DNA from: a virus | Lineage: Duplodnaviria > Heunggongvirae > Uroviricota > Caudoviricetes | Direction: 5' to 3' (one strand) | Virus record (IMG/VR): IMGVR_UViG_2923339551_000001 | DNA length: 37,127 bases | The notes under the pieces: generated by a model | Seen by the model: the letters and a program-made list of their open reading frames with translations, nothing else | What the model was told of the DNA's origin: nothing | The model's database searches: none | Translations under genes and position numbers: made by a program | Shown here: positions 1,254-32,010 of the stretch, piece by piece | Layout of the letters: each line of letters begins with the position of its first letter | Numbering within the stretch: the first letter of the stretch is position 1

Positions 1254-2147
1254 CTATTTCCAGTTACAAGCATCTTGAAGCGGTTTTAGTGCATTTGACA
1301 GGCCGCTTAAATTGAAAGTTGCACTTACAGGGCTTTCATTATAAGGGGTTATTTTTGTGTACATTTTATGTGAGTTGGCAAGTTTTCTTATGAAATCAAT
1401 ATCATTACCTTTATAAAAAACAGCCTTTGTATCTGTAGATATTAGCCAGTTTCTTTCAACTGCTTTCTGTTTATCAAGACGATACAGCATGCTGGTTTGT
1501 TCAAGGCCTAAATATACATCCCAACTAAGAAATACTTCGGTTTTCTTTTCTCGGCAAGCTATAAACAGAGTGGGAGTAACAGCTTCTCCAAATGGAGTTC
1601 TGATATAATCATCACTTTCTAACGATAAAATTATATTTTTCGAATCATCAATTGGCGATGTAGTAATGGACGTGTGCCATTTTCCTGCATCTGTGGCTTT
1701 CTCTAATTGTGATTCAGATTGAACAGCTTCATCCTGTGGGAATAGTTTATCGTAGCAGTTTAGTCTGGCTTCTTTATCATTTTCTGCTCGGCATTTAGAT
1801 ATTTCAGAAAGATTTGGTTGCTGAGCCTTTGTTGTTACTAGCTTTTCCGTTTTAGATTTTGAGTTTACAGATGGAGTAAATGTTGGAGAAAAAAAACGAT
1901 CATAACAAGATAAACGTTTGTCATCATCTTTCTCATCAGGGCATTGATCCCTGCTTTCAAATTTTTCAGCAACTTTCGTTCGAGTCGGTTGTATTGACTT
2001 ATCGTAACAAGAAAGTCTGTCTTTATTGTTTTCTATCGCTCGGCACTGGAGCACTGCATTGAAATTCTTATGTTCAGTTGCTGCATGAACAGGCAGTACA
2101 CTAATTGATATAAATAATGCACCTATAGAAAAAATCATATTTTTCAT
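1254..2147 (-). CDS. Hypothetical secreted protein with three Cys-containing repeats
   Basis: 297-aa ORF, AT-rich; N-terminal signal-peptide-like segment (MKNMIFSIGALFISISVLPVHA); three repeats of C-x8-9-RLxCYD(K/R)xF; family not recognised. Confidence 0.6.
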   Translation of the reverse strand: MKNMIFSIGALFISISVLPVHAATEHKNFNAVLQCRAIENNKDRLSCYDKSIQPTRTKVAEKFESRDQCPDEKDDDKRLSCYDRFFSPTFTPSVNSKSKTEKLVTTKAQQPNLSEISKCRAENDKEARLNCYDKLFPQDEAVQSESQLEKATDAGKWHTSITTSPIDDSKNIILSLESDDYIRTPFGEAVTPTLFIACREKKTEVFLSWDVYLGLEQTSMLYRLDKQKAVERNWLISTDTKAVFYKGNDIDFIRKLANSHKMYTKITPYNESPVSATFNLSGLSNALKPLQDACNWK

Positions 2148-2151
2148 TTTA

Positions 2152-2484
2152 TTATCCCTTTGGTTTAGTAAGAAATACTAAAATTCCGATAATGATATCG
2201 CCAATAACCCATAAGCCTCCAATGACAATTAAACCTAAGCCCGTACCAATAACTGCCCCAGCTTTTTCGGCATCGGATGTGGTATTGTTTATTATTTCAT
2301 CAGCGCCTCCTAGTCCAACTAAAAGTGTATAGATCATAAAAATATTAAAAAATATAAAAGTCCATTTAATGAGTTTTCCAAAAAATGAACGCTTAAGTTT
2401 TTTCAGTTGTTTACCACAAGCAGGGCAACATAATGCTGAATCGCTTACCTCTTTCTGGCATTCAGGACATTTGATTAATGTCAT
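2152..2484 (-). CDS. Hypothetical zinc-ribbon membrane protein
   Basis: 110-aa ORF; N-terminal CPEC-x10-CCPAC zinc-ribbon motif followed by two hydrophobic helices; 4 nt upstream of the secreted-protein gene, likely one operon. Confidence 0.6.
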   Translation of the reverse strand: MTLIKCPECQKEVSDSALCCPACGKQLKKLKRSFFGKLIKWTFIFFNIFMIYTLLVGLGGADEIINNTTSDAEKAGAVIGTGLGLIVIGGLWVIGDIIIGILVFLTKPKG

Positions 2485-2996: not shown

Positions 2997-3830
2997 TCAC
3001 CAAACGATGCGCCCATCTGATGTATGTCCTTTGGCTTGTTTTACTATACTGAAATCTACTATTCCATATGGATAAATTTTATTTACTTTAAACACAAGAT
3101 TAGCAACTAAATGCATTCTCGATTTAACTGTTTCTGTGCGCAAAGCGATATTTGAGGCCCCTTTTATTTTAGCGCTAGGATAAATGAGACCATCAACATC
3201 AGGGTATTTATCAAGAAGAAGACGGCAAAAAATTCTTGAGTAAATATAATTTACCTCATGGGCATTGATACTATTAAGCAACTCAGCAGAAAGGGCATCC
3301 ATATACAAATATGATAGCAAAGCACGGATGTCGTCCTTACCAATTCTGCTAATGATGCCACGAATTTCATTAAACACTTCAATTGAAATTGTATTTACAC
3401 CGTGATACACATTAAAGACCTCACCGATAGCAAAACATCGCATTCCAGACTCTGAATTTTCCGGCATCTTAAAGTGAGCTATGTGAACATAATCCCCTTC
3501 TTTTGCATTAATTTCGGCTAAAGCTGTTCCGATACTATAAGCGCCATAGAAGATAGCTTGTCCATCATCATTCATTCGGCCTATTTTACATTTTTCTGGT
3601 GGAGGGGGATATATTTCACTGATGTTATTATATCCGCATTCATTTGGGCACTTTCGCGCTCTAAAAATTGGTCTGTCATAACCGAACTTGAAATTAACAC
3701 CGCCATATGATTGAAGATACCATCTAAGTAATCTCTCTACTTTCTCTGGCTTTATAGTAGTTAGTAATTCTTTACGAAACAGATCAAGACTATTTAACTC
3801 AATTACCTTTAGCTTATTATTCATGACCAT
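2997..3830 (-). CDS. RES-domain protein (putative NAD+-targeting toxin), no adjacent antitoxin gene
   Basis: 277-aa ORF, AT-rich; motifs FRAR, GRMNDDGQAIFYGAYSIGTALAEI and GLIYPSAKIKGASNIAL match the Arg/Glu/Ser signature regions of the RES family as I recall them; no Xre-like partner ORF in the cassette. Confidence 0.55.
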   Translation of the reverse strand: MVMNNKLKVIELNSLDLFRKELLTTIKPEKVERLLRWYLQSYGGVNFKFGYDRPIFRARKCPNECGYNNISEIYPPPPEKCKIGRMNDDGQAIFYGAYSIGTALAEINAKEGDYVHIAHFKMPENSESGMRCFAIGEVFNVYHGVNTISIEVFNEIRGIISRIGKDDIRALLSYLYMDALSAELLNSINAHEVNYIYSRIFCRLLLDKYPDVDGLIYPSAKIKGASNIALRTETVKSRMHLVANLVFKVNKIYPYGIVDFSIVKQAKGHTSDGRIVW

Positions 3831-4570: not shown

Positions 4571-4831
4571 TTAATTCTGAGATAAAGGCAAACTCATCTG
4601 ATTGTTTCCCCTGTGTGAAGCTGGCAACTCATGCCACGGGATACCTTCTGAAGAGTGAACGCCGGGGGCGTGTTTCGATGTGAATTTATGGAAAGCTTCC
4701 AGTGTTGAGAAACTTATGCCGCATTCCAGGTTGTTACACTGGTAATATTTTTTCCGTACGGTGTTTGAATCATTTTCCGAACGACTGGTGCGGATACGGG
4801 CAGATGCGCCACAAAGCGGACAACGGAACAT
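4571..4831 (-). CDS. ogr: Ogr/Delta-family zinc-finger late transcription activator
   Basis: 86-aa ORF; CPLC-x19-CNNLEC zinc finger and N-terminal similarity to P2 Ogr; position next to D. Confidence 0.8.
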   Translation of the reverse strand: MFRCPLCGASARIRTSRSENDSNTVRKKYYQCNNLECGISFSTLEAFHKFTSKHAPGVHSSEGIPWHELPASHRGNNQMSLPLSQN

Positions 4832-4873: not shown

Positions 4874-5983
4874 TCACTCTGTTTCTGCTATCCATTCCGG
4901 GATTTTTGCTTCAAGCTCAAGCTGCGTGGTAAAGCCACTGTTATCAATGGTGTGCTCGGCTTTCGCAATAATCCAGTCCTGATTATCAATCTCGCTTTTA
5001 AATCCTGTTACCGTGCCATGCATTTCGGGGTAGAGTTCTGCGCGTCCACGAGCCAGTGTGATGGAGAATGATGCGGCTCCGCGTTGTAGCTGCTGCCACT
5101 TTGCCGCCGCTGCGCGTCTTGCTGCCAGCTCGTTCTGATAAGTCTTGCGTAACACAAACACATTGCCATCCGCGCCTTCCATATAGTCACCTTCACGGCT
5201 GCTGCTTTTCTCCTTTTTGGGTTTTGGCGGTTTACGGCGTTTCACGCTGACTTTTTTCTTTTTCCCGTAATTAAGATCAAGCCAGTAGGCGCGTACCCCC
5301 GTATACGCCTCGCGGTCAGCAATACGGAATTGATGGCGATCGCCGCTGCTGCGTGTAATGGCGAACGAGGGCAACGGCTGGCCCTGTGCGTTCACGCCAC
5401 CACCTGGCATGATGAATAACAGATTACCGCTTTTTACCGTGGTGATTGCGCCCAGCATTTCCGCCATGCGCGTAAGGAAAGACATGTCGCTTTCTTCGGT
5501 CTGGTCGGCGTGGTCGATTTCGATATCCATCAGCATTTCGCTGATTTGCGGTTTCAGGCCGTACCGATGAGCGATGGCGGATACCACGCGCTCAACGGTC
5601 ACATCATGCCAGGATACTTCACGTTTAACGTTAAATTCATCCCGAAAATCTGCGCTTCTGGCTGAAACAGTCAGCCTGTCCGGCGGTCCTTCGTGAGCGA
5701 TTTCATCAACAATGTAAGTGCCTTTTTCTGTCAGCGGTTCTCCTTTCCAGCCAATGAGAACCGTCAGGCGCGCGCCCCGTGGCGGTAGCTGCAACTGACC
5801 ATCCGCATCATCCAGCGTGATGGTGAGCTGGTCCGCTTCAAATCCCCGGTTGTCGGTCAGTGACAGGTTCATCAGGCGCTCTGCCACGCCGGACAGCGTT
5901 TTACCCTCCGCGAAAATATCCAAATCCGGCATTTTCACGGGGTCTGTGCCCTGACTGAGCAATTGCATGGTGGTATCGGTCAT
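4874..5983 (-). CDS. D: Tail protein D (late control gene D family)
   Basis: Track ORF 4874-6115; I place the start at the internal ATG at 5983 (MTDTTMQLLSQG) because of a GGGAGGG Shine-Dalgarno 6 nt upstream; gpD-like sequence throughout. Confidence 0.8.
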   Translation of the reverse strand: MTDTTMQLLSQGTDPVKMPDLDIFAEGKTLSGVAERLMNLSLTDNRGFEADQLTITLDDADGQLQLPPRGARLTVLIGWKGEPLTEKGTYIVDEIAHEGPPDRLTVSARSADFRDEFNVKREVSWHDVTVERVVSAIAHRYGLKPQISEMLMDIEIDHADQTEESDMSFLTRMAEMLGAITTVKSGNLLFIMPGGGVNAQGQPLPSFAITRSSGDRHQFRIADREAYTGVRAYWLDLNYGKKKKVSVKRRKPPKPKKEKSSSREGDYMEGADGNVFVLRKTYQNELAARRAAAAKWQQLQRGAASFSITLARGRAELYPEMHGTVTGFKSEIDNQDWIIAKAEHTIDNSGFTTQLELEAKIPEWIAETE

Positions 5984-11886: not shown

Positions 11887-12450
11887 ATGCTGAATAATAG
11901 AGATATGAATATTAATGAACTTAAAGACTGTATTCACTATGAAGTAATCGGTAGCGAGCGTCCTTTCTCCTGGCGAAAGGCAATTGTTCGCGCAATAAAA
12001 CATAGAAGAGTTCGTTATTTATTTTGGTGGCGCATAGCCAAATACCTTTTTGATAAAGGCGGATACTGTCGGAAGATTGCGGGGAAAATAGAACGTTTCA
12101 TTCTTGATAAATATAATGTAACAGTCCCTTTAACTGTAAATATAGGGAAAGGCTTTGATATTTCTTATCTCAACAGTGTTGTTATCGGTCACAAAGTAAC
12201 CATCGGTGAAAATTGTTCAATAAAACCAGGGGTAACTATTGGGCTACGTGGTGATTTTAATGATATGGATATTGTTATAGGACATAATGTGACCATTGGT
12301 TGTAATGCCACCATTCTTGGTGGCAAAGTGCGTATAGGAAACAATGTCACAATAGGTGCTCATGCATTGGTATTGCATGATATTCCTGATGATTCAACAT
12401 TCATCACTAAATTTCAGTCTGAAGTTATCTGCTCGTCCTCCCGCACATAA
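11887..12450 (+). CDS. Hexapeptide-repeat (left-handed beta-helix) acetyltransferase, WcaB/CysE-like; cargo gene at the G/FI (Z/fun) hotspot
   Basis: 187 aa, AT-rich; repeated [LIV]GxxxxIG hexapeptide motifs ([55 protein letters not shown]); 3' end overlaps the 3' end of G by about 37 nt. Confidence 0.7.
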
Positions 12451-23443: not shown

Positions 23444-25195
23444 ATGATTCAGGACGCTTTTGTGCGCCAGCGTGCGCGGCAACTTTACTGGCAGGGTTAT
23501 CCGCCCGCAGAAATATCACGTCTGATGGGAATAAACCCGAACACGATTTATGCGTGGAAAAAACGTGACCAGTGGGATGAAACGCCACCCGTGCAGCGTG
23601 TCACGCAGTCCATCGATGCGCGCCTCATCCAGCTTACTGAAAAACAGAATAAAACAGGCGGTGACTTTAAGGAAATAGACCTGCTGACCCGGCAGCTTAA
23701 AAAGCTGCATGATGGCCAGCCGGATGTGATGGCCGCAGGAAAGAAAGGCCGGGCGAAAAAACTCAAAAATCATTTCACGCCGGAACAGATTGCCGCACTG
23801 CGGGAAAAAATCATCAGCAGGCTGGAGTGGCATCAGCGGGGCTGGTTTGACTCCCTGACCCTTTGCAGGGAAGCCGGGATACGTAACAGGATGATCCTGA
23901 AATCCCGACAGATTGGGGCGACCTGGTATTTTGCACAGGAAGCGCTGCTGATGGCGCTGCGTGACGATGTGGCGCAACCTTACCAGCGTAACCAGATTTT
24001 TTTGTCTGCGTCGCGTCGTCAGGCGTTCCAGTTTAAAAGCATTATTCAGAAGGCCGCGGCTGAAGTTGATGTGGAGCTGAAAGGGGGCGATAAAATCATC
24101 CTCTCCAACGGCGCAGAGCTGCATTTTCTCGGCACTTCTGCTGCGTCGGCACAGTCCTATACGGGCAATTTTTATTTTGATGAATTTTTCTGGGTCAGTC
24201 GCTTTGCTGAACTGCGCAAGGTGGCTGGCGCTATGGCAACCCTCAGCGGACTGCGGCGCACCTACTTCTCCACGCCATCCACCGAAACGCACGAGGCATA
24301 CGCCTACTGGAACGGCGACCGCTGGAACGAGAAAAAGGCCTCGCATAAACGCCAGCGTTTTTCTGTGGACTGGAAAACGCTGCATAACGGGCTTATCTGC
24401 CCTGACCGGACGTGGCGGCAAATTGTCACGCTGGAAGATGTGGTTAATCACGGCTGGAAACACACCGATATCGACGAAATTCGTGATGAAAACACCGAAG
24501 ACGAGTTCCTCAATCTCTATATGTGTGAGTTTGTCCGCGAAGGGGAATCGGCATTTAACCTGAATATCCTGATTGGCTGCGGTGTTGACGGATACGACGA
24601 CTGGAAAGACTGGAAACCTTTTGCTCCCCGCCCGATGGGGAATCGTCTGGTATGGATTGGGTATGACGCAAACGGCAGTAGTGGCAACGGCGACAGCGGC
24701 GCTGTGTCCGTGGTGGTTCCTCCGGCTGTTCCTGGTGGCCGTTTTCGAACGGTGGAGACGCGACGCGTTCAGGGGCTGGAGTTTGAAGAACAGGCCAGAG
24801 TCATTGAAGAGTTCACGTATCGCTACAACGTGGAACACATCGGCATTGATGTGACGGGCGGGAACGGGGAGGCTGTTTATCAGATAGTGAAACGGTTTTT
24901 CCCTGCTGCTATTCCGTACACCTTCACGCTGTCATCAAAACGGTCGCTGGTACTGAAAATGCTGCAAATAATGCGTGCCGGGCGGTGGGAATACGATCGC
25001 GCCGAACGCGAGCTGGTCGCGGCCTTTAACGCCGTGCGTAAGGTGAAAACACCGGGCGGCTTTATCACTTACGAAACGGACCGCGCGAGGGGGATCAGCC
25101 ACGGCGACCTTGCGTGGGCAACCATGCTTGCTGTCATTAACGAACCGATTGGCGGCGAAGGAGAAAACGAGCGTTTCACGGTTATGGAGTTCTGA
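23444..25195 (+). CDS. P: Terminase ATPase (large) subunit P
   Basis: 583 aa (P2 gpP about 590); gpP-like sequence. Confidence 0.9.
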   Translation: MIQDAFVRQRARQLYWQGYPPAEISRLMGINPNTIYAWKKRDQWDETPPVQRVTQSIDARLIQLTEKQNKTGGDFKEIDLLTRQLKKLHDGQPDVMAAGKKGRAKKLKNHFTPEQIAALREKIISRLEWHQRGWFDSLTLCREAGIRNRMILKSRQIGATWYFAQEALLMALRDDVAQPYQRNQIFLSASRRQAFQFKSIIQKAAAEVDVELKGGDKIILSNGAELHFLGTSAASAQSYTGNFYFDEFFWVSRFAELRKVAGAMATLSGLRRTYFSTPSTETHEAYAYWNGDRWNEKKASHKRQRFSVDWKTLHNGLICPDRTWRQIVTLEDVVNHGWKHTDIDEIRDENTEDEFLNLYMCEFVREGESAFNLNILIGCGVDGYDDWKDWKPFAPRPMGNRLVWIGYDANGSSGNGDSGAVSVVVPPAVPGGRFRTVETRRVQGLEFEEQARVIEEFTYRYNVEHIGIDVTGGNGEAVYQIVKRFFPAAIPYTFTLSSKRSLVLKMLQIMRAGRWEYDRAERELVAAFNAVRKVKTPGGFITYETDRARGISHGDLAWATMLAVINEPIGGEGENERFTVMEF

Positions 25196-26241
25196 TGAGC
25201 AGAAAAAATAAAAAAGTGCGCATGAGTTCACGCATTGATCTCGCTGATGCGCTCAGGAAAGAATCATCGCTCAGTGCATTCACATTTGATGGTCCTTATC
25301 GCCTGACCGGGCATGACCTGCTGGACAATATGTACTGTGCTGATAACGGGCGGTGGTATGAAACCCCGGTGGACTGGTACGGTCTGGCAAGAGCTGCCCG
25401 GCAAACGTCCTGGCATCAGTCTGCGCTTTACTTTAAGCGCAATGTATTACTCGGTTGCTACATCCCGCACCCGCTGCTTTCCCGGCAGGATTTCTCGGCG
25501 CTGGCGCTGGACTGGTTTGTGTTCGGTAACGCATTCCTTGAGCTTCGAAGCAATATGCTCGGCGAACCGCTTAAATTACGGCACGCACTGGCGAAATACA
25601 TGCGACGCGGAAGCGATCTTGAATCATGGTGGTATGTGCAGGATGGCAAGGACGCGTTTCAGTTTCGCCCTGGCAAAGTGTGCCACCTGATGAATCCGGA
25701 CATTAACCAGGAAATTTACGGCATGCCGGAATATCTTGGCGCATTACTCTCGGCCAGCCTGTCTCATTCGGCGGACATGTTCAGAAAACTGTATTACGAC
25801 AATGGATCCCACGCCGGGTGCATCATCTACATCGGTGCAGCGCAGGTAAACCGCGAAAGCATGGACTCCCTGAAAGAAACGTTACAGGGTGCGCGTGGTG
25901 GTGGTGCGTTTAAAAACGTGCTCATCCATGCGCCCAACGGGGGCAAAGAGGGGGTGCAAATTTTGCCGTTCCAGCAGATCACCGCAAAGGATGAGTTCAT
26001 GAATGTTAAGGCGGCATCCCGTGATGATGTGCTGGCTGCGCACCGCGTTCCGCCGCAACTGATGGGGGCGATGCCGGGCGAAAAAAGTGCGTTTGGTGAT
26101 GTGGAGAAGGCCGCGCGGGTTTACGCAATTAACGAGCTGATGCCCGTCATGGAGGCTATGAAGCACATCAATGACTGGCTTGGCGAAGAGGTGATCCGCT
26201 TTAACCCTTACGCACTGCTGGACACCCAGCCCACATCCTGA
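25195..26241 (+). CDS. Q: Portal vertex protein Q
   Basis: 348 aa (P2 gpQ about 344); overlaps the P stop. Confidence 0.9.
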   Translation: MSRKNKKVRMSSRIDLADALRKESSLSAFTFDGPYRLTGHDLLDNMYCADNGRWYETPVDWYGLARAARQTSWHQSALYFKRNVLLGCYIPHPLLSRQDFSALALDWFVFGNAFLELRSNMLGEPLKLRHALAKYMRRGSDLESWWYVQDGKDAFQFRPGKVCHLMNPDINQEIYGMPEYLGALLSASLSHSADMFRKLYYDNGSHAGCIIYIGAAQVNRESMDSLKETLQGARGGGAFKNVLIHAPNGGKEGVQILPFQQITAKDEFMNVKAASRDDVLAAHRVPPQLMGAMPGEKSAFGDVEKAARVYAINELMPVMEAMKHINDWLGEEVIRFNPYALLDTQPTS

Positions 26242-26767
26242 CGCGCTTCGCTTGTCTGCTGCTTCGCCGGGGCATAAAAAATTTATGCCCCGACTCTCCA
26301 GCTCCTGTATCAATCAGATAATTTCACGACGCTTTCCTGCTTATTGCCATCATCGACAGTTAGACTCTTACGCAATCCCACCGCGTTGACTGCATGTTCT
26401 CGCCGTCTCAGTGCGATTTTGACGGCCTTTTCACCCCATCAAATCAAAAGCCCTCACGTCTTTTTCACGCTCAGCGTGAGAAATACAGCCATTCTGTTGT
26501 GTCGCTGCGACATCGTTCAGGGGATGCTATTTACCCCCTGAAACGCGGGCTGTTCCCCCGTCACCTGCGCGCAGAAAAAACGCGTTTTTTTGTGCATGCA
26601 CGGATCCTTGACGGATCCAGCCGCCATGCGGGCCGGAAGGGTAAAAAGTCGTTCAAAAAAATTGTGCAAATTTGTGCACTGTCGTGCAGTGTGCATCGTG
26701 CTGTTTTCTGCGCAAAAAACGGATGGTAAATTTGTTCGTAGCAGGGAAATTTTAATGAGCGCAAGAC
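26242..26767. other. cos/packaging region (expected by synteny), palindrome-rich
   Basis: Noncoding stretch between the Q 3' end and the tin/old-position cargo; contains GGATCC-TTGAC-GGATCC and a GTGCA repeat array; the exact cohesive end was not identified. Confidence 0.35.
26263..26290 (+). terminator. Stem-loop downstream of Q
   Basis: ccggggcat-aaaaaattt-atgccccg hairpin read directly. Confidence 0.45.
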
Positions 26768-27298
26768 ATGAAGAAAGATTCATATCCTTATTTGATTTGC
26801 ATGACTGTTTCAGTGCTAGGGATTATTTTCCTCTTTTACTGGTGGAGGGCAGATATCTACAGGATTACATATCTTAATTCGCGTATATCCAATTATTACA
26901 TCTTGTGTAGTATGGGTATGTCCTTTTTCTTCTCCTTGTTTCTGGTGAAGAGGGGGGTAGTGAAGCAAAGTGGCTGGAAAGGACTGTCGGAATACCTGAA
27001 GGTTTATGCTGGCTCTTGCATTCTTACAGGGATATTCCTGATTATCCCTCTTATGATGGTGACTTATTTTTTACCAGGAGTAACATCATCATATGTTGCA
27101 CCGTATGAGTATACATCCGGTAGTTCAAGAAGCTGTTCCGGAGCGTTTGTTGATGATCCCGATCTGCATAAAAATATTCTTATTTGCTATCCGTATGGTA
27201 ACTATGAATATGACAATATTATCTATGTTGAAAAGAAAACTAATGCATTGGGCGTTGTTGTGACGTATGCACAGACTGCACGAGACGATGCTGAATAA
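26768..27298 (+). CDS. Hypothetical 3-TM membrane protein with Cys/Tyr-rich C-terminal domain; cargo at the P2 tin/old hotspot
   Basis: 176 aa, strongly AT-rich versus the phage backbone; three hydrophobic helices then a soluble tail; occupies the position and orientation of tin/old in P2. Confidence 0.65.
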   Translation: MKKDSYPYLICMTVSVLGIIFLFYWWRADIYRITYLNSRISNYYILCSMGMSFFFSLFLVKRGVVKQSGWKGLSEYLKVYAGSCILTGIFLIIPLMMVTYFLPGVTSSYVAPYEYTSGSSRSCSGAFVDDPDLHKNILICYPYGNYEYDNIIYVEKKTNALGVVVTYAQTARDDAE

Positions 27299-27388
27299 GA
27301 TACTACAGAGATAGTCCACTTTTTTGTTTATTTGTCGGGATAAAAACAAATTACCCCGACTCACCATGTATTAATCTTCCGCTTTAAG

Positions 27389-27772
27389 TTAGTCTTGTAG
27401 CTGCGCTGTCCTGCTATGCAGCAAAGCGGCGTACTTTAATGCGTCCTGTGCTTTCTGGAATTTAAGTGCATAGTCAGTGGCGATTTTTTCCAGTTCAGCG
27501 ATTCGGTTGTCTTTGGTTTCCAGCCAATCAAGTAGCGCCAATACTTCAGGATCCCCGACATCCAACACTGTTACGCGTGATTTTTCATAATGTTCGTCGG
27601 CAAGAGTTCGACCAATTTTGAAATCTCCATCATCACCATAACCGGAGCAGCCATAAACAACCTGTGCTCCAGATATTCGCTGAATTGACATTTCTTCGCC
27701 GCAAATAGGGCATTTTGGTACTGGTGCAGGTGAATAACGTTCACGTAATGCCTGATAGTTGATTTTGCTCAT
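27389..27772 (-). CDS. Zinc-ribbon protein (topoisomerase-type C4 zinc finger) with coiled-coil tail
   Basis: 127 aa; CPICG-x14-GCSGYG motif resembling the zf-C4_Topoisom ribbon; last gene of the A-parM-parR transcription direction. Confidence 0.6.
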   Translation of the reverse strand: MSKINYQALRERYSPAPVPKCPICGEEMSIQRISGAQVVYGCSGYGDDGDFKIGRTLADEHYEKSRVTVLDVGDPEVLALLDWLETKDNRIAELEKIATDYALKFQKAQDALKYAALLHSRTAQLQD

Positions 27773-27835
27773 TAAGTCGCTCTTCTTGTTTATGTTCTGA
27801 GATGGAGATCAGGGCGAACTCGCCCTGACGTTGTG

Positions 27836-28147
27836 TTATTCAGGAAATAACGCCCTGATATTTCCGGCCATCTGACTGGTTATCTGTGCGGTTGGTACTG
27901 GCTGTGACAGGGGGCGTTCTGTCCTGGTTTGTGTCACTGATAACGCCTCATCGTCAGCCCATGCTGCCAGTCGGTAAGCCTCTGCCGGATTCATTTTCAG
28001 AAGCGCCAGCCCAGCCAGAAAAGCCACGCGTTGGCCGTTTTTACGGGCTTCTGGTGTAAGGCTGTCCAGCCAGGCGCATGCTTCGCCTTCGTTCTTGACG
28101 GCGGCGGGCTTCAGATAGAAACTTATTCGTCTGGTTGGTGTCGTCAT
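27836..28147 (-). CDS. parR: ParR/StbB-like partition adaptor
   Basis: Track ORF 27836-28282 overlaps parM; start placed at the internal Met (MTTPTRRISFYLKP..., about 103 aa); resembles plasmid R1 ParR (ISFYLKP / LDSLTPEAR / AFLAGLAL); immediately downstream of parM. Confidence 0.6.
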   Translation of the reverse strand: MTTPTRRISFYLKPAAVKNEGEACAWLDSLTPEARKNGQRVAFLAGLALLKMNPAEAYRLAAWADDEALSVTQTRTERPLSQPVPTAQITSQMAGNIRALFPE

Positions 28148-28151
28148 TGGT

Positions 28152-29111
28152 TTACTCCTTGTCCATTGCGTACAGCCCATTAACCAGAGCAAACTGTGGC
28201 ACCCCGTCCGCGATGAAAGTCGCATTAACTCCGCAGGCTTCGCGGATAGCGGGTGCCACAATCTCCGCCCCGCCACCGACAACCATCACCCGCCCGTAAC
28301 CCGAAAAACCCGCCAGCGCGCGGATCACGCGTTGTTTCAGTGTTTCTTCCTTTTCACGAATAACCGCCATCAGGCTGGCGTAATGCGCGTCATTGTGGAT
28401 GTGCTGGCGCAGCCAGGCTTCATCATGGCGATGTTCGATAATGGTATTGGCGATGTGGTGACTGGTACGCATACCGTTAGTGGCCATCACCGACAGTACT
28501 GCATCGGCCATCAGGGAAACGCCTACGTGTGGATCGCAAAACACCTGGCTGATACCTGCCAGTTGTCCCTGAACCTTTGCCACATCCAGCGTGGTTCCAC
28601 CTAAATCCACAATCAGCAGGGATTCAAACGGACTCATGTCAGCCAGTGCTTTAAAGCCAGCCGGAATGGATTCAGGCATAACCCGTACATTACGGATAGT
28701 GAATGCTTCGCCGTTCTGGTATTCCACCGGGCGCATAACGTTTGCTTTTTTGCGGTTGATGTTGGCCATGTCCGGCTGTGCGTTTGTGTCGAAATACTCG
28801 CTCAGTGGCAGGGTGACAACCACATCCACCTCCTGTGGCGTGATGCCTGATTTGACCAGCGCGTGATGAATGGCAATGACATTCACATCGCTGTACTGGT
28901 ATTGCGTGTCGGTCGTCTGGACAAAGCGATCGCTGACCGGATCAAAACCATAGCGCACGCCATCAAGCATGTAGTTCGCGGGCTGCGTGCCACCGAACGG
29001 CGCAGACCATTCCGACTTGAAGCTGTTCGGGCTGATGGCGTTGCGGCGTTCGCCGTTCTCAGTCCATGCCAGCTTGATGTTGGTGGAGCCGTCGTCGATA
29101 CAAATTTTCAT
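28152..29111 (-). CDS. parM: ParM/StbA-like actin-family partition ATPase
   Basis: 319 aa; N-terminal MKICIDDGSTNIKLAW, LIVDLGGTTLDVA and VVGGGA motifs closely match plasmid R1 ParM as I recall it. Confidence 0.8.
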   Translation of the reverse strand: MKICIDDGSTNIKLAWTENGERRNAISPNSFKSEWSAPFGGTQPANYMLDGVRYGFDPVSDRFVQTTDTQYQYSDVNVIAIHHALVKSGITPQEVDVVVTLPLSEYFDTNAQPDMANINRKKANVMRPVEYQNGEAFTIRNVRVMPESIPAGFKALADMSPFESLLIVDLGGTTLDVAKVQGQLAGISQVFCDPHVGVSLMADAVLSVMATNGMRTSHHIANTIIEHRHDEAWLRQHIHNDAHYASLMAVIREKEETLKQRVIRALAGFSGYGRVMVVGGGAEIVAPAIREACGVNATFIADGVPQFALVNGLYAMDKE

Positions 29112-29146: not shown

Positions 29147-29255
29147 GGGGATTCTGAAATCCCGTTTTTGCCTGTTTTGTGCGCGCTTCATATATCACTG
29201 CGCGTTTTTTGCTCATTTACGGGATTCGTGAGTCCCGTTTCTGTCTGTTTTTTGT
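29147..29255. repeat. Two ~34-bp direct repeats, each a GGGATTC...GA(A/G)TCCC hairpin plus T-run, straddling the A stop and parM start
   Basis: ggggattctgaaatcccgtttttgcctgttttgt (29147-29180) and cgggattcgtgagtcccgtttctgtctgttttttgt (29220-29255) read directly. Confidence 0.45.
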
Positions 29256-32010
29256 TTCCACTGGTCAGGCCACCCCGCAGCAGGTCTGCTTTGCGGCGGG
29301 CGCGTTCAGTGGTTTCACTGATTCTCTGTGCGTGCTCTGCGTCGCGGATGGCGCGCAGCATGTCAGAAAGCACGGTAACGGGTGTTTTCATGGTGTTCTG
29401 GTCTTGCTGAAGTGTGGATGCCAGGCGTGCGGCGGCTTCGGGGTCTGATGCCGCCAGCTGTTCCAGATAGCTGGCGACCGGGTTATGGCGGATCTCCGTG
29501 CTGCTTACGCCGTGGTTACGGCTCAGGCGCTGCCAGAGCTGCGTGATCCGGCTGTCCGGTCGGGTATCCGGTTTGCGTACAATTTCAAATCCCTGCGGTG
29601 CAATGATGCTGCCGTCAACGTACAGACTGCCGCCCCGTAACAGGTGCTGCATCTGCTGTTCACCGATATGCAGGCCGAGAGATTCAGCAGACTCCCGCCA
29701 TTCTTTAGCGAGTAATTCGTGGTTATCAGGCAAAGGCCGCTGCTGTTTGCGGCTCTGTGTCCAGCTCTGCATTTCATCACTGCTGTTTTTTGCCTGTTTG
29801 TCACGAAGCGAACGCATCAGCGCCCGGCGTTCGTGCCGTTTCAGTGAGCGCATCCATTCGTTCACTTCAACGCCGTCAGGGAGCTGCGGCCACGGTGCTG
29901 GCCGTTCTTCCGGCTGTTCTGTCCCGTTGTTGTCCGTTTCCTGTACACGGGGACAGTTATTGCCACGAGTCCAAGGGGCGGCAGGGCCGCCCTGAAGGTC
30001 AAAACCATTTTCGTGGGCGCTGTCTTCCGGTTCTGGTTTACGTCTTACCAGCTTCCAGTTATCCGGATGCGTGCACACACGGGAGGATTCCCCGATGAGT
30101 GGTGACCAGATCCCGTAAATCTGTACGCTCTGTTCGCCGTAATCGTTCAGCTCATCTGCGAGGTCGTAGGCGGTGCGAATCAGGTAGTCTTTGCGTGGAA
30201 CAAGCACGCCGCCCTGTTTCTCTATGTAGGTGGCAAAACATCCGGCATCAGCGGCAGCAAGAACCGCATCCATTGCGTCATTTTCCAGACGTTGCGGTCC
30301 CTGTGGGTTACGTGCCATCTGACAGGCAAGGCGGCGCAGTTCACGCCACACCTGACGGGAAGGGATGCCAAAGAACTGGAACTGGCGGACCCGGTGAAGG
30401 CGCGCCCAGCCGATGGCGCGTTCCACGCTTTCTGCCATCGTCTTTCCTGATTCGTCGTCGATGCGCGGTTTGCCTGTTTTCGGGTCAATGCCATCCACGG
30501 CGCGGCTGTCCAGGTTCTTTCCGATGTAGGTGGCGATGTAGCTGGTCGGCGTACCTTTCGAACCGTCGACGTACTCTGCCTTAAAGCGCGGAGTTATGTC
30601 ATTGCCCAGCTCGTGGCGGTCTTCGCGAATGGCAATATCACGGGTGATGTCCACGATGCTGTCGATTTCTTCAGGATGTGCAAAGACCATCATGTGCCAG
30701 TGCACGGTGCCGTCATGGTGAGGCTCCACCGTGCGAATGCCATACCAGCGCAGGCCGTCGCGGTTCAGTTTTTTGCGGACCGCCTTAAAAAACGTGTTAA
30801 CCAGGTAATCGCTGGAATCGCGCATGGTGGCCCCGTTCCATTTGGGGTTCGGATGACCGTTCTCCGTTGTTGCGTGGTACTTCGAAGGGGTAGTGACAGT
30901 CAGAAACACCGCTTTGTCGCCACGGGCTTCGGCCAGAAGTTCCAGCCCCTTCATGGTGGCCATCATTTCTGCCTTACGGTGAACCGGGTTACTTACTCCC
31001 GCGTAATACACCGTCTCGAGATCAATCGTGAACCCGTCTTCATTTTCCAGCATGAAACTTTTCAGGAAATCGCGTGTTTTCTCGCGCTGTGCGCGAAACT
31101 CGCTTAACGCGTCCTGGCTCAGATAGGGTGATGTTTTTCTGGAAACCAGACAGGCGGCGCGGAGTTGTTCTTCTCTCCACTCGCAACGTAACAGCCACAG
31201 TTTGCGTTTCCACCATTCCGCACAGGTCAGGCGAAGGATTGCGCCCGGCAGCAGCTCCGTGTCCGGTTCGTTCCTCCGGTCTTTGTCTGTTGTCAGTGCG
31301 TCATAATGTGAAGGCATGGCGTGCAGGTGTAACGCCATGCGGGCCAGCATCTGATACGCCTTCAGCGTCACCTCCATGGTCAGCTCTCCATCGGTCGCGC
31401 CAAAGCCATCGCAGAGTTTTTCGAAGGTGCTGCTGAACATCGCCGCCGTCATGGTGGCCAGCGTCTGTATCTGGTGTTTGTTGAGTTGCGGCAGGTAAAG
31501 CAAATCGTCCAGGCGTTCGCGTCCGGCAAGGGAGCGATAACCCGGTGTCAGCCAGCGGTGATCGGTGCGGTCCAGACGTTCGAATATTTTGCGCAGGGTT
31601 CCGCGTGCGTAGCGTTCAGCCTGCCAGCTCTTTTTGCCTTTCCGGCGATCGGCTTCCTGTTTTTTGCGCAGGAAGGAGAGGTGGCGAATAAGCGGATCGC
31701 GCAGATAGGACGGCAGTAGGCGCAGCGAGGCCATGGCTTCATCCACCGCGCCGCGTGCCTGTTTTCTGGCGTCTCCTGCCAGTGTGATGGTTTTGTCCTG
31801 TTTTTCCTGTGCGTCCAGGCTTTTATTAATCAGGTTGCCCAGCGGCGTTGCGGAGAACGCCGCATCAGCCATTTCCTGGCGGCGCTCGTTCTCTGCCCGG
31901 TAGGCATCCAGCCAGGAGGAAAGCGCGGATTCAGGAGCGGGGATCCCCGTTCCTTCACGCCCCACTGCGTGGCGCGGTTGTTGCCAGTCCCTGATGTACT
32001 CTGCCGTCAT
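29188..32010 (-). CDS. A: Replication initiation endonuclease A (rolling-circle Rep)
   Basis: 940-aa ORF; long block of similarity to P2 gpA (SPY.S...LTVTTPSKYH...VEPHHDGT.HWHMM...YIAKYI.KN.D); true start and C-terminal extent uncertain. Confidence 0.85.
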   Translation of the reverse strand: MTAEYIRDWQQPRHAVGREGTGIPAPESALSSWLDAYRAENERRQEMADAAFSATPLGNLINKSLDAQEKQDKTITLAGDARKQARGAVDEAMASLRLLPSYLRDPLIRHLSFLRKKQEADRRKGKKSWQAERYARGTLRKIFERLDRTDHRWLTPGYRSLAGRERLDDLLYLPQLNKHQIQTLATMTAAMFSSTFEKLCDGFGATDGELTMEVTLKAYQMLARMALHLHAMPSHYDALTTDKDRRNEPDTELLPGAILRLTCAEWWKRKLWLLRCEWREEQLRAACLVSRKTSPYLSQDALSEFRAQREKTRDFLKSFMLENEDGFTIDLETVYYAGVSNPVHRKAEMMATMKGLELLAEARGDKAVFLTVTTPSKYHATTENGHPNPKWNGATMRDSSDYLVNTFFKAVRKKLNRDGLRWYGIRTVEPHHDGTVHWHMMVFAHPEEIDSIVDITRDIAIREDRHELGNDITPRFKAEYVDGSKGTPTSYIATYIGKNLDSRAVDGIDPKTGKPRIDDESGKTMAESVERAIGWARLHRVRQFQFFGIPSRQVWRELRRLACQMARNPQGPQRLENDAMDAVLAAADAGCFATYIEKQGGVLVPRKDYLIRTAYDLADELNDYGEQSVQIYGIWSPLIGESSRVCTHPDNWKLVRRKPEPEDSAHENGFDLQGGPAAPWTRGNNCPRVQETDNNGTEQPEERPAPWPQLPDGVEVNEWMRSLKRHERRALMRSLRDKQAKNSSDEMQSWTQSRKQQRPLPDNHELLAKEWRESAESLGLHIGEQQMQHLLRGGSLYVDGSIIAPQGFEIVRKPDTRPDSRITQLWQRLSRNHGVSSTEIRHNPVASYLEQLAASDPEAAARLASTLQQDQNTMKTPVTVLSDMLRAIRDAEHAQRISETTERARRKADLLRGGLTSGNKKQTETGLTNPVNEQKTRSDI

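Follow-up and report, generated by a model that had tools for sequence, protein, structure and literature searches.

The window analysed here, a stretch of DNA of 37,127 nucleotides in all, carries a prophage in which a reading frame of 176 codons, hereafter ORF176, lies between the portal gene Q and the replication gene A. The genes and features of this interval and its borders are as follows:

23444-25195, plus strand: terminase gene P
25195-26241, plus strand: portal gene Q, left border of the hotspot
26300-26690: conserved cos-proximal DNA, 91-95% identical to P88-like phages (Xuanwuvirus, Peduoviridae)
26768-27298, plus strand: ORF176 coding sequence, with an ATG start and 176 aa plus stop, beginning MKKDSYPYL
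26952-26957, plus strand: homopolymer of six G residues (G6) inside ORF176, codons 62-64
27389-27772, minus strand: fragment of an Ead/Ea22-like gene of lambdoid type, 127 aa (Pfam PF13935, E 3e-29)
27836-29111, minus strand: StbB-like and ParM (StbA) partition genes, cargo of the hotspot (Pfam PF10784, PF06406 and PF21523)
29188-32010, minus strand: replication gene A, 940 aa, right border of the hotspot (Pfam PF05840, E 7e-129)

The initial annotation had assigned ORF176 to the slot and orientation of the exclusion genes tin and old of P2, and in agreement with this the gene is located between Q and A, on the strand of Q and convergent with A. However, ORF176 does not fill the slot alone, as had been supposed, but shares it with the Ea22-like fragment and the ParM/StbB partition pair. 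Similarly, the prophage is indeed P2-like, but it is not P2 proper and belongs with the P88-like phages. The proposal that ORF176 is far more AT-rich than the prophage backbone was borne out: its GC content is 0.39 (GC3 0.40), and 400-nt windows across 26801-27600 had a GC content of 0.40-0.42 compared to 0.52-0.60 in the neighbouring prophage genes. The presence of a ParM/StbB-like pair in a prophage hotspot hints at a possible plasmid-like state.

The gpQ-gpA interval of Escherichia coli P2-like phages is a hotspot that holds many anti-phage systems, with experimental support (Rousset et al., 2022; PMC9122126), and the same hotspot harbours partition systems in about a quarter of phages as well as toxins, including cytolethal distending toxin (PMC9122126). 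ORF176, situated between gpQ and gpA and beside cos, has the location of hotspot cargo. Its position is nevertheless an incomplete argument for a function in defence, because the cargo of the hotspot also includes partition systems and toxins.

ORF176 is an intact gene under purifying selection. Compared with the copy in phage 434 its dN/dS ratio (Nei-Gojobori) was 0.10, and compared with one from Salmonella 0.15; synonymous sites were saturated (dS above 1). ORF176 is thus not a chance open reading frame. All relatives of ORF176 share the start MK(K/N)(D/Y)SYPYL, and when read from this family-wide start the gene is intact in eight of nine P2-borne copies. The exception is an allele with seven G residues in the homopolymer (G7), in which the frame is shifted and a stop is reached at amino acid 113. 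G7 was present in one of eight IMG/VR copies and G5 in none of the eight; phase variation at the G6 tract was considered, but one G7 copy in eight and no G5 are too little to claim a switch. The exact ORF176 protein is recorded on at least 1000 contigs, and the whole arrangement from 26300 to 27800 was found in 61 of 5426 complete E. coli genomes.

In contrast to these results, in all three E. coli genomes that were inspected RefSeq/PGAP calls the P2-borne copy a pseudogene and marks it "frameshifted" (window equivalent 26727-27302). Taken at face value, this label implies that ORF176 is a decaying pseudogene or remnant that was brought in with the Ea22 fragment, and both the truncation of the adjoining Ea22-like gene and the existence of the G7 frameshift allele would be in keeping with such decay. 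However, the intact reading frame in nearly all P2-borne copies, a dN/dS of about 0.1 and the occurrence of an identical protein on so many contigs make decay extremely improbable. Furthermore, the PGAP call traces to the lambdoid reference protein, which is annotated at 200 aa and carries an N-terminal extension of 24 aa. This extension is encoded by a conserved promoter-like block that it overlaps, has no counterpart in the Salmonella, Enterobacter and Phytobacter proteins, and is probably spurious. As a result of the label, RefSeq gives the P2-borne copy no protein record, consistent with ORF176 having been missed by protein-based surveys of the hotspot. Thus, a pseudogene call on an intact, selected gene takes ORF176 out of protein catalogues, and surveys of defence hotspots may under-count cargo of this kind.

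ORF176 is embedded in a segment of DNA that is shared with lambdoid phages and that contains the following candidate signals:

26640-27385, plus strand: approximate extent of the mobile cassette common to 434-type lambdoid phages, from DNA alignment
26655-26679, minus strand: terminator-like hairpin (26664-26679) followed by a T-run, reported by a scan, just upstream of the candidate promoter
26704-26732, plus strand: candidate promoter, with a -35-like TTTTCT (26704-26709), a 17-nt spacer and an extended -10 TGgTAAATT (26724-26732)
27334-27360, no strand assigned: hairpin 36 nt past the ORF176 stop codon, GTCGGGATAA...TTACCCCGAC

Besides ORF176 itself, the shared DNA comprises about 150 nt on its upstream side and 85 nt on its downstream side, and homology ends where the convergent Ea22-like gene has its stop codon. 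Using tblastn, ORF176 copies of 79.5% identity were found in the lambdoid phages 434, 2B8 and mEp332, where the gene lies between xis and exo-bet-gam on the strand opposite to the pL operon. A cassette held in common with lambdoid phages at about 80% identity directly demonstrates transfer, and the horizontal acquisition that had been proposed from position, orientation and composition is thereby well supported. In the window, the cassette is abutted by the truncated lambdoid-type Ead/Ea22-like gene, here inside a P2-like prophage; its Pfam match spans profile positions 1-111 of 139, and RefSeq annotates it as incomplete. The arrangement suggests that the ORF176 cassette and the Ea22-like fragment were recombined in from a lambdoid phage as one segment.

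A weak promoter match upstream of ORF176 is one that we infer from sequence conservation: the block TGnTAA(A/T/G)TT is preserved across the copies of E. coli P2-like, lambdoid, Salmonella and Enterobacter origin, while a consensus promoter scan of the region reported no promoter for ORF176. In the minus-strand hairpin, the block AAAAAAATTGTGCAAATTTGTGC is likewise conserved in other copies, although its fold is weak. The hairpin downstream of the gene had a folding energy of -10.1 kcal/mol (z -2.1) on the plus strand and -15.4 kcal/mol (z -3.3) on the minus strand, and phage 434 retains it through a compensatory G:C to A:U exchange; the copy in the window has no clear U-tract. Upstream of the candidate promoter, between 26640 and 26700, we also observed GTGCA-type motifs at spacings of about 7-11 nt (TTGTGCA, TTGTGCA, TCGTGCA and GTGTGCA). 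Some conservation of these motifs is seen in other copies, and they might act as an operator or just belong to the minus-strand hairpin.

To place the cassette in its wider context, marker proteins were used to class 79 IMG/VR loci and two genome loci; a scan of species-representative genomes yielded only two loci. Of the 81 loci classed, 66 were lambdoid and 14 P2-like, and one was without a marker within 6 kb. In 65 of the 66 lambdoid loci, TraR-like and almost always exo-bet genes followed the gene on the other strand, with int-xis upstream wherever the contig extended so far; the exception (L106) showed nothing more than a weak TraR-like match some 5 kb upstream. Among 24 E. coli contigs examined, the lambdoid copy was in a prophage integrated beside ybhC in 17. 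All 14 P2-like loci showed the order P, Q, ORF176 homologue on the plus strand, ..., gpA on the minus strand, and this order also held on backbones with a portal only 45-73% identical to the portal here. Across the P2-like carriers, ORF identity to the copies here ranged from 57 to 100% and portal identity from 45 to 100%, and because of this span in the portal the carriers are not one lineage. Diverged homologues of 57-67% identity fill the Q/A slot of other P2-like prophages, among them ones from Salmonella and Enterobacter. In NCBI assemblies, Salmonella homologues of 66% and 55% identity and an Enterobacter-assigned homologue of 57% identity occupied the same Q/A slot in the same orientation.

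The slot itself varies in content. The cos region is common to P88-like phages as far as about 26690, beyond which they differ, P88 and vB_EcoM-705R2 carry other genes in the Q-A interval, and ORF176 is absent from most P88-like and P2-like phages. Thus, comparing the slot across relatives, which the initial annotation had named as a check, revealed an interval with variable content among P88-like phages. ORF176 is present or absent between genes that are otherwise adjacent in related phages, and its composition is distinct from that of its flanks; for these reasons, the cassette is a mobile moron in a published defence hotspot. Its candidate signals, the promoter-like block and the flanking hairpins, would agree with an autonomous unit. 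Its occurrence in both P2-like and lambdoid prophages is a clean example of the movement of an accessory gene between unrelated families of temperate phages.

This distribution also bears on the possibility that ORF176 serves the cycle of its own carrier phage, through the timing of lysis, protection of the lysing cell against re-adsorbing progeny or maintenance of a plasmid state together with ParM/StbB. Small membrane proteins are often holin or antiholin partners, and in the prophage studied here ORF176 lies near partition genes. However, there is no linkage to ParM in the lambdoid or Salmonella contexts, ORF176 and the early and replication genes are on opposite strands, and the prophage already has a set of holin, endolysin and spanin. 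Moreover, the gene is dispensable, given that most P88-like and P2-like phages lack it. A role in the cycle of the carrier is therefore very unlikely.

No neighbouring gene was conserved across the contexts of the ORF176 family that were compared, and ORF176 is for this reason regarded as a single-gene unit. In Salmonella P2-like prophages (L005, L008, L009, L010 and L012; at about 5100-5890), two small genes on the same strand, encoding 81 or 123 aa and then 119 aa, often precede the homologue. Neither Pfam nor PADLOC gave a match to these small genes, and they were rejected as obligatory partners because they are present in some loci and missing in others. The more distant family members in Phytobacter (43% identity) and Proteus are chromosomal and not visibly in prophages. 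The Proteus homologue is in an unremarkable region, while the Phytobacter homologue adjoins two DUF4062-STAND/TPR proteins. On the Phytobacter metagenome contigs (L013/L014; 1-6510 and 7688-8539) these two proteins are large, and one variant also has an Apyc1-like protein of metallo-beta-lactamase fold. This neighbourhood may be a chromosomal defence island; an association of the family with such an island was not retained, since PADLOC returned only a generic TPR match and weak MBL matches, which are suggestive at most.

We searched for relatives of ORF176 in several libraries. ORF176 is a member of PHROG 1416, with residues 90-175 aligned to profile positions 2-87 of 90 (E 1.6e-45), and this family of unknown function was the only library match. 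The 90 positions of the PHROG profile cover only the third transmembrane helix and the C-terminal barrel described below, and not the three-helix architecture of ORF176. This is probably because many annotations start at internal codons, giving forms of 112 aa and 81 aa. Indeed, many database entries for the family are C-terminal fragments of these two lengths, for which slippage or alternative start calls are possible sources. In an exhaustive HMMER profile search of 1.84 billion representative proteins, 59 were found at E up to 0.001; the named members are from Escherichia, Shigella, Salmonella, Enterobacter, Citrobacter, Phytobacter, Proteus and Pseudomonas, and all are annotated as "hypothetical".

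No Pfam or NCBIfam family and no PDB or BFVD entry matched ORF176, and 29 family members searched against Pfam gave only scattered transmembrane noise below threshold. A search with PADLOC, suggested at the outset as a check of the locus for defence genes, went against a known system, with no match to ORF176 among 5027 models (v2.0.0; library dated 2023). Two apparent leads were rejected. An ECF S-component, the best PDB-sequence match of the family profile (E 0.033), was judged to be transmembrane noise. An adhesin-type repeat domain was considered since a narrow family profile matched two giant proteins (P0104, in 11 stretches, and P0117, in a PKD region), but these matches were treated as compositional artefacts because a broader family profile finds nothing in either protein. 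In the literature on mEp332, phage 434, P2 hotspots and superinfection exclusion, we found nothing on the ORF176 protein. Thus, no relative of known function was found by sequence or structure, in keeping with the initial failure to recognise the family. ORF176 represents a small, uncharacterised family of a kind that is already known, namely prophage morons that encode envelope proteins.

We next considered the predicted structure of ORF176. AlphaFold2, run on an alignment of 11 sequences, gave a model with a mean pLDDT of 84.5, in which helices span residues 5-33, 38-61 and 69-101 and five strands lie between residues 105 and 171; when the C-terminal domain was modelled in isolation with 33 sequences, the pLDDT was 90.8. 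On the basis of the AlphaFold2 helices and charge counts, the protein is divided as follows:

26786-27073, plus strand: membrane part
Residues 7-27 (26786-26848, plus strand): transmembrane helix TM1
Residues 28-41: loop 1, short, predicted periplasmic
Residues 42-60 (26891-26947, plus strand): transmembrane helix TM2
Residues 61-79: loop 2, basic, predicted cytoplasmic
Residues 80-102 (27005-27073, plus strand): transmembrane helix TM3
Residues 103-176 (27074-27295, plus strand): C-terminal domain, a small five-strand beta-barrel of 74 residues, predicted periplasmic

The three transmembrane helices that had been proposed are thus also predicted by AlphaFold2, as three long hydrophobic helices. 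The tail had further been described as rich in Cys and Tyr; Tyr is indeed abundant (nine of 74 residues), but Cys occurs just twice, as C123 and C140. Averaged over 29 family members, the loop between helices 2 and 3 (about 16 residues) had 4.4 K/R versus 0.9 D/E, the N-terminus (about seven residues) 1.5 versus 0.3, and the loop between helices 1 and 2 (about 14 residues) 1.3 versus 1.0. By the positive-inside rule, these counts place the N-terminus and loop 2 in the cytoplasm and loop 1 and the barrel in the periplasm, and the predicted topology of ORF176 is therefore N-terminus in and C-terminal barrel out. C123 and C140 are invariant or nearly so across the family and are sited at the two ends of a beta-hairpin in the model, which fits a disulfide between them in the periplasm. 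Other conserved motifs (YFLPG, SCSGA, ICxP and KRSNxLG) are found at the end of helix 3 and in the barrel. Furthermore, omega was lower for the barrel than for the membrane part, at 0.076 versus 0.114 against the phage 434 copy and, with a smaller difference, 0.133 versus 0.153 against the Salmonella copy. A conserved barrel with two invariant Cys is as expected of a periplasmic binding module, should the predicted topology hold.

ORF176 resembles tin and old of P2 in lying in the cos/Q-to-A interval, in its low GC content, in being dispensable and in varying between related phages. However, Tin and Old are soluble proteins of the cytoplasm whose action follows the entry of DNA, whereas ORF176 is predicted to be an integral membrane protein and has no PADLOC match. 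T4 Imm and Sp and HK97 gp15 are small proteins of the inner membrane or facing the periplasm that block genome entry, and HK97 gp15 is also a moron. None of the three surfaced in the PHROG, PADLOC and BFVD searches with ORF176, and they are set apart by description in that, to our knowledge, they are shorter and have no barrel domain. The closest known membrane-anchored small beta-barrel proteins include DUF1093 (3npp and 2k5q), the DUF2500 protein YhhM and the C-terminal OB-fold of NfeD; for the last of these, ORF176 gave neither a Pfam NfeD match nor a close structural match to the NfeD C-domain.

The nearest documented functional analogue is SieA of phage P22, an inner-membrane protein of 162-164 aa with three predicted transmembrane helices that blocks DNA injection (PMC10883804). 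SieA has a promoter of its own, is expressed from the prophage and is encoded on the other strand from the adjacent virion genes (PMC10883804). ORF176 is similar in being a single gene, in size and in the number of predicted transmembrane helices. However, an hhalign comparison of the broader family profile with P22 SieA gave a probability of 2% over 11 aligned columns, and the SieA motif FxRYPxEAxxFNK is absent from the ORF176 sequence. This motif is C-terminal and predicted to be cytoplasmic in SieA, whereas ORF176 ends in the predicted periplasmic barrel. In addition, SieA occurs only in P22-like prophages, where it lies between genes 16 and 9, whereas ORF176 is found at Q/A or xis/exo. Thus, ORF176 is an analogue and not a homologue of SieA.

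By analogy with SieA, we tentatively propose that ORF176 acts in superinfection exclusion at the envelope, a role to which we give a little less than an even chance. The cassette would be transcribed in the lysogen from its own promoter, and the three-helix protein would reside in the inner membrane with its N-terminus in the cytoplasm and its disulfide-stabilised barrel in the periplasm. Anchored at the periplasmic face of the inner membrane, the barrel would bind a component of the genome-delivery apparatus of the incoming phage or, alternatively, a host factor of the inner membrane or periplasm that phages need. The superinfecting DNA would then fail to reach the cytoplasm and the lysogen would survive. 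Several observations weigh against this proposal. The family is found in prophages of both siphovirus (lambdoid) and myovirus (P2-like) type, and hence it cannot simply target relatives of its carrier; its distant members in Phytobacter and Proteus are chromosomal; the promoter is a weak match; and neither PADLOC nor the comparison with SieA gave a homologue of known function.

Alternatively, ORF176 could act by abortive infection. It would then be a membrane-toxin effector whose three helices form or regulate a pore, which would collapse the membrane potential when infection is sensed and kill the cell before phage are released. Defence systems commonly use small membrane proteins as effectors (Rousset et al.), ORF176 resides in the gpQ-gpA defence hotspot (PMC9122126), and the DUF4062-STAND/TPR neighbours of the Phytobacter homologue would suit such a function. 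However, the match of these neighbours in PADLOC was only generic, no sensor partner is conserved in any context, and ORF176 would be made constitutively from an autonomous cassette. With no partner gene conserved, a constitutive blocker made of one protein is a better fit than a sensor-effector system. Moreover, the barrel is conserved as much as the helices or more, which is unexpected if the helices are the business end. Killing of the infected cell by ORF176 is therefore quite unlikely. It appears less likely than exclusion at the envelope, which we favour because the best-conserved part of the protein, the disulfide-bearing barrel, is predicted to be periplasmic.

The same layout could serve a purpose unrelated to phages. 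Many immunity proteins are likewise built from an inner-membrane anchor and a periplasmic binding domain, and ORF176 might be a lysogenic-conversion factor that confers immunity to a bacteriocin or to a periplasmic toxin of contact-dependent or T6SS type, tolerance of envelope stress or an advantage in host colonisation. The chromosomal location of the distant members in Phytobacter and Proteus would agree with this, as would the virulence effectors among the morons of phage 434 and the non-defence cargo of the P2 hotspot, namely cytolethal distending toxin and partition genes (PMC9122126). However, no similarity to any immunity or virulence family was found and no cognate toxin gene is nearby, and the strict retention of ORF176 in the accessory slots of two phage families points to a benefit relevant to phages. 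We regard lysogenic conversion as somewhat unlikely.

Returning to exclusion at the envelope, the fuller reading would be that ORF176 defines a new family of single-protein exclusion factors, in which the barrel intercepts an entry step common to unrelated phages, and that its cassette has been traded between P2-like and lambdoid prophages and missed by protein-based surveys. This combined reading is conceivable but less likely than not. If true, ORF176 would be a structurally new single-gene blocker of genome entry, a stage of infection that is poorly understood and at which few exclusion proteins have known targets.

Other low-GC cargo was observed elsewhere in the window:

1254-2147, minus strand: VasI-like protein
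2152-2484, minus strand: zinc-ribbon protein
2997-3830, minus strand: RES-domain protein

These three genes have a GC content of 0.33-0.41 and lie between the chromosomal flk gene (1-996) and the ogr-like gene of the prophage (4571-4831). PADLOC gave no match to the trio, which might represent further cargo, placed at the opposite prophage end. Finally, a hexapeptide-repeat O-acetyltransferase gene (11887-12450, plus strand) was located in a low-GC pocket (0.37-0.41) beside the tail-fibre genes. Its best NCBIfam matches were EpsC, CysE and WcaB-like, all below cut-off, and it looks like another moron, possibly one that modifies surface polysaccharide.
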